A stretch of 63,684 nt of DNA, filler included, from Octopus bimaculoides (taxonomy: Eukaryota), in assembly GCF_001194135.2 (NCBI RefSeq). It is 9 parts of 9 records of this genome, joined end to end, with 100 filler letters (N's around TTAATTAATTAA, not from the genome) between each part and the next. Parts side by side here need not be neighbours in the genome. Positions count along the whole stretch, not along the records: positions 1 to 23,096 come from NC_068983.1; positions 23,197 to 28,398 come from NC_068982.1; positions 28,499 to 29,750 come from NW_026384520.1; positions 29,851 to 35,755 come from NC_069005.1; positions 35,856 to 37,813 come from NC_069000.1; positions 37,914 to 39,306 come from NW_026324792.1; positions 39,407 to 44,658 come from NC_068994.1; positions 44,759 to 57,653 come from NC_068990.1; 1 more part is not named here. The stretch is one strand, 5' to 3'. Numbering within the stretch: the stretch's first letter is position 1; every line of letters begins with the position of its first letter. Shown here one piece after another: positions 5,285-48,456 of this stretch. The position numbers were made by a program, and so were the translations under genes. The notes below the pieces were generated by a model. The model saw only the letters and a list, made by a program, of their open reading frames with translations, had not been told where the DNA came from and made no database searches.

Positions 5285-5762
5285 TTAATTATCTATAGTC
5301 CGATGATATTTCAGAATACAATTCCTTCTTCAGATATTCTTAGATGAAGTCGCTGCTATATAATCTGTTTTCCAACGGCTTTTCGTTTTTCGGAAGCGTC
5401 TCAACAATGGCCTCGTGACGCTCCTTCCGGAATTCCTCATGAGAAGTGCATGAGGTCGGCTATGTTTCAATCTCGTATGTGTTGGTGCATTTGTAGCGCT
5501 GCTTCTAAGTTATGTATTATACGTGCAGCTTCCTTTTTTCCCTCTTCTCTTTTTCTTTTGCTATAAACAATAGATGAGCATATCAAAAATGAACCTACAC
5601 ACATCCAGATGTAGCTAAATAATATATTGATTACCAACCTCCAGCCTGTTGTTAATTTGGGTCTTAGTCTGTGTATGAGCATAGCTTCCTTAATTCTTAA
5701 ATTACCCAAATTTCTTTCATTGGCCTCAATTGTGACTGTTATGCTTTTGTCAGTGTTCTGAA
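5285..5762 (-). mobile_element. 3' remnant of a Penelope-like retroelement (GIY-YIG C-terminus plus pLTR-like region)
   Basis: The minus strand at 5761-5645 reads FQNTDKSITVTIEANERNLGNLRIKEAMLIHRLRPKLT, matching the LxIxEAxxIxxxxPxLN end of PLE GIY-YIG endonucleases. A hammerhead-like motif lies about 310 nt downstream. Confidence 0.65.
5291..5345 (-). ncRNA. Degenerate type I hammerhead ribozyme motif
   Basis: CUGAAGA (5333-5327), stem II AGGA/UUCU, GAAAU (5312-5308), AUC loop, AUC cleavage triplet. Stem I pairs only distally (AUCUA/UAGAU). Confidence 0.5.
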
Positions 5763-6724
5763 ATTATTATTATTATTATTATTATTATTATTATTATTAG
5801 AGTCAAAATTAAAAGAAGAGTGCCATTGTTATCTAATGAACGATATTTCGACATCTTGTGTGTCTTCAACTGGTTCAAAAAATAAATTTGTCAATCTACT
5901 TCATTTTGGTTTATATAGAAAGGAATGAGCTAACTTCTCCTGAAGATATGGAGTCAAAATTTATATTATATTATTTATATTATTATTATTATTATTATTA
6001 TTATTATTATTATTATTATTATTATTATTATTATTATTATTATTATTAATTCTTCCAGCTCCTTCTGTTCTTCACAAATACGACTCCCGCTATATATACA
6101 GACGATATTAACCACTTTCGAAGCTCCTCCCAGTGATTTATTTGTTTCGTTTGATGTCCTCTCCTTCCAATTCAGATGGCCAGACGGAACTAACAGTTCG
6201 CTCATTTGTTAACACAACAAACCTCAACAGCGCTTTTCCAGCTGTCTTCACACTTGTCCTCTTCAAACGTATACACTGACATCACAGGGCGACTCAAATT
6301 TCTCTTCTCACATCTTTCACACATCCTCTGTCTCCCACTGTACATCTCTCTCTCTCTCTCTCTCTCTCTCTCGTTGTCTCTCTCTCTCTCACATACACAC
6401 TCACACACATACGCTCCCTCGCTCTTTCACATATGCATATGTATGTACGGGTGTATGTATGTAGACACACTCACACACTTGTGTGTGTATGTATAGATGT
6501 ATCTTAGGTACTGGTCGGGTATAAAGGTAGGGTACTTCCAGAGAAGTACACAACGCGTGTTCTCGGCTACACAAACACACACAAACACGCACACATACGC
6601 ACACACACACATATTTTCATATACACATATATACCAATACACACATGCACACGCACACCCACACAAATATGATCTTCGCTTTTAAGAATAATTTTTTTAA
6701 AACAGATAAAGAAAGAGGCATGAT

Positions 6725-6792
6725 TGCTTTGACCCAATGGTATAATGTCTGTCATATTTACGGGATATGTCGGTTCGAATCCCTCGGTCAGC
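6725..6792 (+). pseudogene. tRNA-like remnant (isolated SINE head or tRNA pseudogene)
   Basis: A-box-like TGACCCAATGG (6730-6740), exact B-box GGTTCGAATCC (6772-6782), partial acceptor pairing. The anticodon arm is non-canonical. Confidence 0.4.
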
Positions 6793-6921
6793 TTTCGACA
6801 TTTTCTGCAAAGGTTTTTTGAACCCACACTATTATCTGTAGGTTTATTTGCTTCGACTTATTTCACATTACCCTGTAGTTCGTGGATTTTTATTACATCA
6901 TCAATATACAAATATGTAAAA

Positions 6922-44100: not shown

Positions 44101-47100
44101 TTTATCTGCTGCATAATATTCATGACAGTATAACCAAGTCCTGACTATCTTTGCTACCGCAATAAAAAAAAAAAAGGAGCAGCATCAATGCAATGAGGAT
44201 CAAACACGGTTACATCCTAAAATTTTCGACAAGGAGGCTGAGAAATGTCAACGTTAAGAGCATAGGGTACACTAAAGGGCAGGTGGATTTGAAGAAAAGC
44301 GTCGTATTGCCGAGCACTATTGCAAGTACGACTTAGCAACCTAACTTCATAGTATGGTCTAATTTGACGAAAAGCGTTCTTTAAAAAAACGTACACCACA
44401 CGCGTGGCTGTGTGGTAGAAGTTTATTTGCTCATGACCTAGGACTTTGCTAATGACGACGACAATAACGAATTCAAAGGCTACGACAGAAAACTCCTACG
44501 TAACATAGGGCAGATACTCTAAATAACATTAAGTGTCAGTCATTCTACTAAATCAGCAATCCTCTTCCTTTCACGTGACAAAAATGAAAGCATAACAAAC
44601 GTAAATGTATCAAAAAAAAGGAAGAGAAAGAGACACAGACAGACAGATAGGAGAGCAGNNNNNNNNNNNNNNNNNNNNNNNNNNNNNNNNNNNNNNNNNN
44701 NNTTAATTAATTAANNNNNNNNNNNNNNNNNNNNNNNNNNNNNNNNNNNNNNNNNNNNATATATATATATATATATATATATATATATATATACTCACAT
44801 ATACTCGTATTAAACTATAGATATATGGACACGCGTGTGTGCGTGCATTCAAAGATATCCACAAACACCACATACACACGCACATACGCGCACACACACA
44901 AACACACACATATATATATACACGTACACACACATAGAAGAATCTCAAACGCGTGCATGTGTATTTGTGTGGTGTGTGCGCGCGTGTGTGTGTGTGTGTG
45001 TACATGTATATGTATATAGAAAGTGCATGCACCTGTGAGAGAGAGAGAAAAAAAAACATCGTTTCAAGAAGCCAGTTATATCAACAAAGGCAAAACGTGG
45101 AAAATGAATGCTCATGCCACAGATGTATCCCAGTTTTCCAGTTGCTTACTTCTACTAAACATCAAAATAAATATGACACCAAGTTTCGGTTGGTGTTGTT
45201 TTGGTGTTTTCAAAAGAACTGGTGCATGAAGTATAAAGTAACGTTGGAGTGAAAATGATAACATGCAGATACACAACACAAAGGCGAAGGTGTTTGTGTG
45301 TGTGTGTGTGTGTGTGTGTGTGTCTGTGTCTGTGTCTGTCTGTCTCTGTGTGTGTCTGTGTGTGTGTGTGTGTGTGTGTGTGCGTGTATACATAATATGT
45401 ATATATATATTTATATATGTTTGTGTGTGTATGTATATATGTGTGCATGTNNNNNNNNNNNNNNNNNNNNNNNNNNNNNNNNNNNNNNNNNNNNNNNNNN
45501 NNNNNNNNNNNNNNNNNNNNNNNNNNNNNNNNNNNNNNNNNNNNNNNNNNNNNNNNNNNNNNNNNNNNNNNNNNNNNNNNNNNNNNNNNNNNNNNNNNNN
45601 NNNNNNNNNNNNNNNNNNNNNNNNNNNNNNNNNNNNNNNNNNNNNNNNNNNNNNNNNNNNNNNNNNNNNNNNNNNNNNNNNNNNNNNNNNNNNNNNNNNN
45701 NNNNNNNNNNNNNNNNNNNNNNNNNNNNNNNNNNNNNNNNNNNNNNNNNNNNNNNNNNNNNNNNNNNNNNNNNNNNNNNNNNNNNNNNNNNNNNNNNNNN
45801 NNNNNNNNNNNNNNNNNNNNNNNNNNACACACACACACACACACACACACACACACACACACACACACACACACACATACACACACACGTGCACACACAC
45901 ATACACGCACGCATGTGTGTAGCACTCACCATAATGTTACATGCGTGTTCGCGAACGTTTGTGAATAAAATATTCGTACAGAGATGTCTCCAGTAACGAT
46001 TGTGATATATAGTGTATGTCACTAATATTAATTGCAGCGTTACGCTCTATAGTTGAGATATAAAGGCTAAAGGTGATGATCAAATAGGTATCACAACAGT
46101 TGGAGAACAACTACAACGACGACTATGAAGATGATGACGACTATATCATCAACAAAGATAACTTCGACAATACTTCTGTAGTCTATAACCATCAAACTAC
46201 TTCGTTGCTGTTACTATTGATGCCGATAGATTTGCCTTCGGAAAAGCTGTAACAGTAGCTATGATCAGTGAAAATTGATTGACACATGAATGCATTTGAT
46301 CAAAATCAAAATCAAAGCTTCACTCTTCAATTCGGTATAGAAGCAGCACCACTCTTTCTCTGTGTGCGTGTGTGTGTGTGTGTGTGTGTGTGTGTGTGAG
46401 TGTGTGTGTGTGCTTGCATGTGTGCACATATATGTGTGTGTGTGTGTCTGTGTCTGTATACCCAGATATATTTGCTTATTTATATATGCATATAAATATA
46501 TATCCATGTATATCCATGCTCATTGACATATATATGCAAATTTATACACACACATTTATGTAAAACACGAATAAGTGCAAGTTTTATCTTTTTTAAGTAC
46601 ATTTCCTTTTATTTCGCCCTACGAAACCCTTATAGTTTTTTTTATATTTTTTGGACAATAAACTAAGATAATTCATCATTATTTCTTGTATTTGACAGCC
46701 TCGTATTCCCAATATGAAATATTGACTTGTATAACTGCCTCTTTTATAGCTGTCCAATAACAATCGTGTAGAGTTTTACCACTGGATCTTAAGATGTTAG
46801 ATATATTATGTTATCACCAGGTTTGAATTTTTTTTTTTTTTGTAATATATGTGTATTGTCTGTGTGCGTGTATTTTAGTATTGTGTTTAGTTGTGAGTTA
46901 TGCTTTGTATATCTCTATGGCAGATCTATATAGTTTGAATGTATTGTCCACACACACACACATACAAACACCACACTACACATACACACAGAAACATTCG
47001 CACACACACACACACACACACACACACACACACACACACATACACACACANNNNNNNNNNNNNNNNNNNNNNNNNNNNNNNNNNNNNNNNNNNNNNNNNN

Positions 47101-48287
47101 NNNNNNNNNNNNNNNNNNNNNNNCACACACACACACACACACACACACACACACACACACACACACCACTCCACACCACACTCCACAGGCATGCATATAT
47201 ATTTTCCCTTCTGCTTCAGCATGACTAAATAGTATTTTAGCATGAATGAAACCTGTAGCATATATTGAAGAAATGTAAACACTTTCTTTTATTCATGATA
47301 AAGTTCTCAAATAATTTTCTTCTATTTACTTTCTTGTTAAACATATATGTGTGCACCAGTGTTGCGTGTTTGTATGTGTGTTTCTGTGTGCACATGTATT
47401 TATGTCACTGTAACATTCGACCGTCATCACCTCCTCACCCATCAAATTTTTGTGTTTTTTCATATCTGCGGAAGCTTCTATTATCTATCTCCTGCTGCTG
47501 CACTCCCTTCCTCCTTTAACAGTCATTACCACATCCTGCTCTTCTCCCTTTTTTATTCACCCACACATTAACACTAGACTATTTATTCCTCAACACTAGT
47601 CGACATTTCTTTTATCTCGCTTGAGGTGTTCCACCGAAACGTTAGATTCCTCTTGCTCCTCACAACAAAGTATCTTTTTTTTCCCCACTGCTTGAATTAT
47701 TTATACACACTTAGCTCCAGTTGAAACGGCGCCAGCTGCAATCATTATCTTAAAAGAATAAGTTTTTCATTGAAAAATTAAGGAAGTATGTATATAATGC
47801 GCTTTAAACATGATAAAAAAATAGTGAGAAGTAAGTCAAGGGAACAGAAAGGCAAAGAGTGAAGGGGTGAAGCTGTTTAAAACTTGAAAAGGACTTAGAT
47901 GCACACGCACACACACACACACATATGTGTGTGTGTATATATATATATGTGTATGCAAAAACGCACAGACTCACTCATACACACGTATATACATATATAT
48001 ATATATANNNNNNNNNNNNNNNNNNNNNNNNNNNNNNNNNNNNNNNNNNNNNNNNNNNNNNNNNNNNNNNNNNNNNNNNNNNNNNNNNNNNNNNNNNNNN
48101 NNNNNNNNNNNNNNNNNNNNNNNNNNNNTATATACATACATACATACATATATATATATATATACATATATGTATAGATATATATATATATTGGAGGAGA
48201 TTCGTTATAGGTATGAGAATATACCATAAACAAGTACAAAAAATGAAGAAAAGATGTAGAAACAGAAATAGATTTATTATAAAACTG

Positions 48288-48456
48288 GATTCAATGCATA
48301 CGTACGTTTCAAAACACCATGCAAAAATGTAAGAAAAAATTTAAATCATAGTGATTGTAATTATAATTGAAAACAAAATATTTAAAATTAAGAATAAAAA
48401 TAAAAATAAAATTTAGAATTTAATTTATGCATTGTCATTCTCATCAGTGAGGAATC
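48288..48456 (-). ncRNA. Type I hammerhead ribozyme, intact core, about 130-nt AT-rich stem II
   Basis: GAUUC-cu-CA-CUGAUGA-GAAUGACAAUGCA...UGCAUGGUGUUUU-GAAAC-GUAC-GUA-UG-cauu-GAAUC. Confidence 0.7.

Follow-up and report, generated by a model that had tools for sequence, protein, structure and literature searches.

The 63,684-nucleotide (nt) window of the Octopus bimaculoides genome analyzed here (assembly GCF_001194135.2) contains a set of motifs resembling hammerhead ribozymes. These sites are probably the 5'-truncated, decaying 3' ends of at least seven repeat families, likely Penelope-like elements (PLEs), whose master copies carried a predicted hammerhead. Six of the predicted ribozymes belong to type I and would likely cut as dimers via a palindromic loop III. 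The seventh (family F) has a split core, is predicted to cut as a monomer, and likely derives from Naiad PLEs. The six type I sites appear ordinary to mildly unusual, and the remaining one opens onto a split-core wiring, a predicted hammerhead that is probably undescribed. On balance, we lean toward the view that an active hammerhead of undescribed wiring is present in Naiads and in the non-coding elements derived from them. In this reading, a helix and a hairpin interrupt the core between A9 and stem II, and the two distant ends of the motif come together to close it. This fold would be a permuted form of the C-S-G hammerhead (C, CUGANGA; S, cleavage site; G, GAAA) of nematode Naiads. It would be present in tens of thousands of copies, cut the element RNA in vivo, set the 5' ends of new copies, and feed a circular intermediate.

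In an alignment of 24 family F copies, CUGACGA is located 25 nt 3' of GAAA; 14 nt before GAAA, a UH is found that precedes the complement of the pre-core strand. The blocks in F and its relatives are thus ordered cleavage site, GAAA, CUGANGA, corresponding to the S-G-C order described by Eckert et al. (2023), and all core bases are present. A preliminary description of the window had listed the F site (35579) among type I-like motifs, but its loop GCGCA is not palindromic and its core lies downstream, 3' of GAAA, so that F falls outside type I. Assignments of F to type I with a deleted core or to type II were also rejected, because no pair forms between the base following the cut and the one preceding the core. 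Scans with a loose pattern and with descriptors yielded further families with the same order and different stems (K, J, M, M2, N, O, and Q). Genome-wide counts from the loose S-G-C pattern were strand-asymmetric and uninterpretable, and its listed matches served only as leads.

Across 18 copies of nine families, 94% of the cells in stems I and III are paired (33-53% in slid controls), and nine of ten pairs have changed on both sides; both stems had served to select the families. The stem III extension, which had not been used for selection, is family-specific, with -9.8 kcal/mol for strands of the same family compared to -4.4 kcal/mol for cross-family combinations (2 of 362,880 permutations). 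Spacing is similarly constrained (13-16 nt from cut to GAAA and 16-26 nt from GAAA to core), a C precedes GAAA in all nine families, and CUGANGA, GAAA, and U16.1 are invariant or nearly so even though every stem has changed. With its long intramolecular stem III, the predicted F fold would require no dimer. The long stem III arms of F, K, J, and M share a purine-rich asymmetric internal loop in the same position (for example at loci L193 and L258). Family Q (L075:2253-2329, plus strand) combines the S-G-C order with a stem III extension, and the frame upstream of it resembles, by eye, the end of a non-LTR (long terminal repeat) retrotransposon open reading frame (ORF).

The partner of the strand preceding GAAA lies 22-27 nt before the cut. 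The two strands form 5-7 Watson-Crick pairs in nine of ten families, compared to 2.6 in cross-family combinations (0 of 200,000 permutations), and this upstream stem II ends at the conserved C before GAAA. Because MAFFT did not align the upstream strand across families, the helix was tested by script only. A hairpin (H) is located directly 5' of the upstream stem II strand in eight of nine families tested. The strand directly 5' of hairpin H pairs with the one that follows CUGANGA, and this further helix (X) forms at least three Watson-Crick pairs in five of eight families (six of eight when G-U pairs are counted), compared to 2 of 160 shifted anchors and 20 of 40,320 permutations. According to cross-family pairing, the motif is arranged as X', hairpin H, stem II 5' strand, long stem III arm, cleavage site, stem I 3' strand, short linker, stem II 3' strand, GAAA, stem III arm, stem I 5' strand, CUGANGA, and strand X. 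In this strand order, A9 and G10.1 are separated by helix X and hairpin H, and helix X would have the remainder of the element as its loop. As joining the two outer ends results in the C-S-G order, the fold may be understood as type CSG, circularly permuted and carrying an insertion. The F copy in the window has its 5' end at the predicted cut and none of the strands upstream of it; it cannot fold alone and looks like a 3' cleavage product.

The rewired motif was found 13 times in 851,737 unbiased nt (8-26 copies per Mb), which extrapolates to roughly 30,000 copies in the genome (range 17,000-54,000). In the proposed mechanism, the RNA would be cut once per head-to-tail unit, releasing a monomer that may be circularized and then copied by the Naiad reverse transcriptase (RT). 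Cutting into units and circularization would explain insertions longer than one unit as well as the excess of copies that start at or just after the cut. For this excess, the first 100 copies out of 508 exact matches to F were inspected by eye. Of these, 22 start in the interval from 3 nt before the cut to GAAA, compared to six clear and two unclear cases in the 28 nt upstream, and 15 clear and four unclear ones in a 42-nt downstream control zone. The start rate exceeds that of the two control zones by a ratio of 2.6-4.1 (p 0.004 to 7e-6).

F, K, and J are homologous non-coding units of ~800, 765, and 697 nt, respectively, which occur head-to-tail and inverted. No ORF was found within 1.5 kb upstream of these three families, and neither they nor M, N, and O have an upstream ORF of their own; only the shared wiring and a similar stem I link F, K, and J to Naiad. 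From the shared wiring we infer that F may be moved by Naiad. A lead from loci L343 and L327, that the F/K/J tail is linked to a PLE family with a C-terminal GIY-YIG domain, was abandoned because one of 30 copies had the tail there. A 23-nt motif taken from the published Octopus Naiad end has 787 matches in the genome (control 0). In family P, whose 3' end matches the published Naiad, RT remains run into the motif-bearing 3' region, ~1 kb upstream of the Octopus-type end. The motif also occurs, with one stem I pair changed, in a second Naiad lineage (37% RT identity). Naiads were reported to lack canonical hammerheads, and their records, including those from Octopus and Euprymna, contain the notes "HHR_core" and "HHR_half_core" (PMC8557442). 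In the supplement of that study, 60 of 62 CTGATGA and 23 of 23 CTGACGA places were inspected by eye; this covers two of four core spellings, and line breaks hide some places. Eight Naiad consensus passages have the S-G-C order with an upstream stem II strand: two Octopus records, three passages around Naiad_Aacu and Naiad_Anas, and passages in parts 8, 12, and 19 (part 8 with two stem I pairs only). Five passages around nematode records (parts 13-16) form complete C-S-G hammerheads with an extra helix, and several passages with G before C (parts 17-19) resisted folding. The Naiad "half cores" may accordingly be read as permuted hammerheads.

For the type I sites, the make-up of the window has to be considered. 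It consists of nine genome pieces, of which those that could be placed map to four different contigs, joined by eight 100-nt spacers of identical sequence (a short word of A and T flanked by N runs, at 23097, 28399, 29751, 35756, 37814, 39307, 44659, and 57654). As these pieces are unrelated, distances between hammerhead sites carry no meaning. All seven loops listed in the preliminary description are present at the positions it had given. However, the motif at 35224 lacks one A of GAAA and has CA instead of UH. Strict motifs (GAAA-[C/T]-loop-[G/A]-UH with a closing pair) number 132 in the window and 107 in shuffles. Six of those in the window have a palindromic loop III, all closed by C-G (34624+, 39458+, 40171-, 41355-, 48310-, and 8454-), whereas 200 local dinucleotide shuffles contained 0.54 +/- 0.75 such sites (maximum 3). 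The site at 8454 had not been listed before; no copy of it was found in a 0.7-Mb unbiased sample, and no genome-wide search for it was made. This sample comprises 80 stretches of 10 kb at even intervals, with 705,877 non-N nt in total. Of its four-nt loops, 27 of 101 are palindromic, compared to 4.9 +/- 2.4 in shuffles (maximum 12, 30 shuffles), and of its six-nt loops eight of 88, compared to 1.1 in shuffles. Among eight control flanks in real DNA, 31 of 436 loops are palindromic (Fisher p 2e-7 against the genome sample). Some of the 35 palindromic sample sites are copies of one family, so not all of them are independent. The preliminary description had named a motif frequency no higher than in shuffles, or a genome-wide lack of palindrome enrichment, as grounds for refutation; since palindromes exceed shuffles in the window and in the sample, and control flanks in the sample, the enrichment is real. 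The excess of ~29 palindromic sites per 0.7 Mb suggests, by extrapolation, on the order of 80,000 sites genome-wide. The sample also contains many more type I families, with the palindromic loops AGCU, AUCGAU, AUAU, GAUC, and ACGU and core-to-GAAA spacers of ~12-100 nt.

Family alignments comprised up to 30 loci each, chosen as the best of 40 scored candidates from 124-1,375. Each window site turned out to be a 5'-truncated copy of a different repeat family. The notion of one dispersed family was not borne out, as genome searches returned separate families for the sites. The consensus sequences of A-E possess the core, stem I, stem II, and a palindromic loop III (five of five loops). The type I order C-G-S, with CUGANGA, GAAA, and UH, is exact in the consensus of A, C, and E; one B subfamily consensus has U instead of A at core position 9, and D contains an inserted A. 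The consensus spacers between core and GAAA measure 94 (A), 77 (B), 129 (C), 14 (D), and 105 nt (E), so that "minimal", as the hammerheads had been called, does not apply to A, B, C, and E. The long spacers close with at least six base pairs beside the core, some with a bulge or mismatch; the base of the E stem II is an A-G mismatch. Compared to mononucleotide shuffles, the stem II inserts fold more stably, with -27.7 versus -13.4 (A), -26.1 versus -13.5 (B), and -16.2 versus -8.7 kcal/mol (C). Among relatives of B, the stem II spacer is either short (15-19 nt) or long (~80 nt), which would make the arm dispensable or a gain within the lineage. In the window copies themselves, an exact core in type I order lies upstream in three of seven cases (40273, 48447, and 35256), fewer than the majority previously asserted. 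Of the others, the core has an A inserted at 39436, is degenerate at 41398, was lost in the plus-strand copy at 34624, and lies downstream for 35579.

Family copies have fixed 3' ends and ragged 5' ends and are typically 80-90% identical to the window copy. D is young, with copies that are 98-100% identical, many of them 100%. The palindrome is kept in 21 of 34 (A), 18 of 36 (B), 10 of 18 (C), 14 of 19 (E), and 20 of 20 copies (D). Judged from these alignments, it is a property of the family masters that the copies lose, and selection would have acted on the masters. According to the proposed explanation, two copies would swap stem III strands through the palindromic loop III to form an active dimer, with the 77-129 nt inside stem II being a tolerated arm. 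Close inverted pairs occur at 6 of 29 (A), 8 of 29 (B), 2 of 20 (C), and 1 of 18 loci (E). The A inserted after C3 of the D core (window 39436-39443) is found in all 20 aligned copies. GIY-YIG domains are abundant in the genome (112 matches). One coding PLE with a C-terminal GIY-YIG domain (L346) has a type I hammerhead with a palindromic loop and a normal core ~200 nt after the stop codon, and its 3' end is homologous to D. Family I has a bulged A after the core, a 4-bp stem II, a 2-nt palindrome replacing stem III, and a stem I of 2-3 bp; its pattern has 555 matches in the genome (control 0). The type I part thus is mostly known biology, with the long stem II as a modest variation. The coordinates of all sites are compiled in Table 1.

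Table 1. Hammerhead-related features in the window, ordered by position
Feature	Position	Strand	Type or basis	Details
Family I	5291..5339	-	pattern search	classical PLE-type minimal hammerhead
Further palindromic stem III-like motif	8440..8454	-	strict motif scan	loop AUAU, no intact core upstream
Family E, left arm of inverted pair	34330..34506	-	type I	damaged over its full length: loop III decayed, C3 altered at 34500; spacer of 105 nt in consensus
Family E, right arm of inverted pair	34513..34647	+	type I	loop GCGC and 3' hammerhead half; core lost at inversion junction
Family G	35212..35262	-	type I, read from one copy of repeat family	decayed; core 35256, loop CGCG, one A of GAAA missing
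Family F, tail	35393..35548	-	homology	common to families K and J; part of 700-800 nt non-coding unit
Family F, 3' part of split-core hammerhead	35549..35601	-	family alignment	GAAA 35584, CUGACGA 35555, predicted cut after 35599
Family D, insertion body	39408..39700	+	repeat alignment	~300 nt
Family D, short hammerhead	39433..39472	+	type I	loop UCGA
Family A, best-preserved window copy	40152..40279	-	type I	core 40273, ~95 nt within stem II, loop III AUAUAU
Family B, damaged	41338..41404	-	type I	loop GAUC, degenerate core near 41398
Family C	48288..48456	-	type I	core 48447, AU-rich stem II of ~130 nt, internal loop in stem I, loop III GUAC

The Rfam hammerhead models, which the preliminary description had proposed as a check, gave no match in 34300-35612, 39407-39700, and 40110-40330, the stretches of A, D, E, G, and F. 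RF00163 has 11 matches in the genome, relatives of family B among them. An Rfam scan of the whole window and a repeat finder were swamped by microsatellites and N runs; the 150 matches listed, of 488, were all microsatellite-driven microRNA or small nucleolar RNA models.

Several results weigh against the proposed explanation. With regard to the rewired fold, a strict descriptor found only two S-G-C matches in the 851,737 nt, compared to 0.25 in shuffles, plus two chance-like G-C-S matches, and minimum-energy folds, which are unable to form pseudoknots, show the long stem III hairpin in only some families. The upstream stem II is missing in family Q (two pairs) and, by eye, in one S-G-C passage of the Naiad supplement (part 25). 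P and R lack helix X at the anchor, N forms it only with G-U pairs, and M2 has no hairpin H; an unanchored search for helix X was not significant (18,657 of 200,000). The 5' ends of F copies are spread over a broad zone (only six of 100 lie within 3 nt of the cut), a pattern that RT pausing could likewise generate. For F, K, and J, a partner encoding RT was not found. In family P, the RT remains match RVT_1 weakly (E 0.048) in one of four pieces, the RT piece had no match in the protein database, and the second Naiad lineage has the motif in only one of four stretches. Among the type I families, the insert of E is only marginally more stable than its shuffles (-24.2 versus -19.3 +/- 3.1 kcal/mol), and the core changes in B (U at position 9) and D (A after C3) may lower activity (PMC10085705; PMC3088659); insertions after C3 impaired saltern hammerheads (PMC3088659). 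Tandem copies able to form a dimer in cis were found within 1.5 kb at one of 116 type I loci. Furthermore, A, B, C, and E match none of 30 GIY-YIG loci. Linkage to GIY-YIG PLEs, a check named in the preliminary description, is thus seen for D, and the PLE link of the other four families is indirect.

Alternatively, F could be an ordinary type-SGC hammerhead (Eckert et al., 2023), in which stem II is built with the strand after CUGANGA and the upstream pairing is accessory or represents an off-state. The order of the blocks is identical, and after a bulged A, three to four pairs including G-U would be possible in seven of nine families. However, the strand directly after CUGANGA provides a single Watson-Crick pair per family (p 0.31 against cross-family combinations), compared to the five to seven pairs of the upstream strand. 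We thus rejected the plain type-SGC fold for F and consider this explanation rather unlikely. It is also unlikely, to a slightly lesser degree, that the rewired fold is a conserved structure recognized by RT or another protein, which derives from a hammerhead but no longer cuts, with RT pausing as the cause of the truncation excess. The spread of 5' ends over ~17 nt instead of one base would fit this scenario, and the core could be distorted by the two helices that separate A9 from stem II. In contrast, the near invariance of CUGANGA, GAAA, and U16.1 across nine families in which all stems differ, and the approximately fourfold drop of the truncation rate upstream of the predicted cut, argue against this scenario.

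That the type I families are non-LTR retrozymes, which spread as tandem small circular RNAs, appears quite improbable. They do share with retrozymes the type I hammerhead, the palindromic loop, and the lack of an ORF in short copies, and a preprint argues that retrozymes derive from PLE ends (bioRxiv 10.64898/2026.07.22.740005). However, instead of tandem arrays, for which there is the single locus mentioned above, these families show inverted pairs and 5' truncation, and D joins the 3' untranslated region of a PLE; F, K, and J do occur in tandem, but as units of 700-800 nt and with another wiring. Of the two kinds of ribozyme-bearing retroelement lineages envisaged in the preliminary description, the PLE type is thus supported, each type I family having a different palindromic loop III, and the retrozyme-like one is not. 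Chance matches in AT-rich, repeat-rich DNA, finally, are extremely improbable. The counts of stem III-like motifs in window and shuffles, and the site at 8454 without a core, would be compatible with chance. However, the palindrome excess in window and sample, the complete consensus motifs, and the compensatory changes across families refute this possibility for A-F and I.

Type I hammerheads with palindromic loops have been described for metazoan PLEs and are active as dimers with swapped stem III strands, with low activity in vitro (PMC4209133). An Octopus PLE hammerhead is listed in the supplement of PMC8557442, and in the giant squid genome, 235 Hammerhead_1 matches were reported (PMC6962438). 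Cephalopod hammerheads have thus been published, as rows of a table or as counts. The families found here resemble the hammerheads of PLE pseudo-LTRs (PMC4209133) in their type I order, stem III of 1-2 bp, palindromic loop, bulged base after A9 in some cases, many divergent families per genome, and close inverted pairs, the latter being a PLE trait (PMC8557442). They differ by the 77-129 nt inside stem II in four families, compared to ~35 nt in the longest loop II among the supplement rows inspected (PMC8557442), and by the extra A after C3 in D. The main consequence of the long stem II arms is that standard searches overlook the motifs.

The rewired families share with type-SGC/CSG hammerheads the order of site, GAAA, and CUGANGA, a short linker between a stem I and a stem II strand, pseudoknotted stems, and the core bases (PMC10085705). 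However, that paper assumes that CUGANGA is continuous with a stem II strand, whereas here this strand lies upstream of the cut and a helix and hairpin separate A9 from stem II. Its examples were drawn from searches of metatranscriptomes, metagenomes, and RefSeq. The text and one supplement file make no mention of animals, Metazoa, Octopus, or transposons, but its taxon lists and alignments elsewhere could list animals. Like Naiads, F, K, and J have (TA)n targets and form tandem and inverted insertions, but they lack an ORF, and the Naiad study, in its accessible parts, does not fold the half cores (PMC8557442). Non-LTR retrozymes (PMC7229834; bioRxiv 10.64898/2026.07.22.740005) likewise are non-coding units with one hammerhead each in head-to-tail arrangement; F, K, and J differ in unit length (700-800 nt instead of ~300 nt) and in being rewired instead of type I. 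We found no published account of the split-core wiring, or of permuted hammerheads in Naiads or animal genomes, in a search that most subscription journals lay outside of. If correct, the F fold would move non-circularly permuted hammerheads from rare metatranscriptome RNAs to high-copy sequences of animal genomes, and the hammerhead core would tolerate a backbone break that was thought to be impossible. It would also answer how Naiads seemed to thrive without a ribozyme, an absence that had been used to argue that hammerheads merely parasitize PLEs (PMC8557442). The role of ribozymes in PLE transposition would become testable with a short RNA construct, for which no dimer is expected.

The window contains other repeats as well. 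A tandem array of C2H2 zinc fingers with an 84-nt period occupies 28451-29734 (+), which we take to be typical of the large zinc-finger clusters of cephalopods. The DDE_1 transposase fragment at 12596-13198 (+, E 8e-16) presumably is pogo/Tigger-like. Frames at 20587-20940 (-) and 41298-41600 (+) resemble Tc1/mariner transposases by eye and have no Pfam match; family B appears to be inserted in the latter. A degenerate 4-nt satellite of ~6 kb, on a separate contig, extends over 57754-63681, and two tandem copies of an 83-nt unit, 96% identical, are located at 20285-20450 near the first mariner-like frame.

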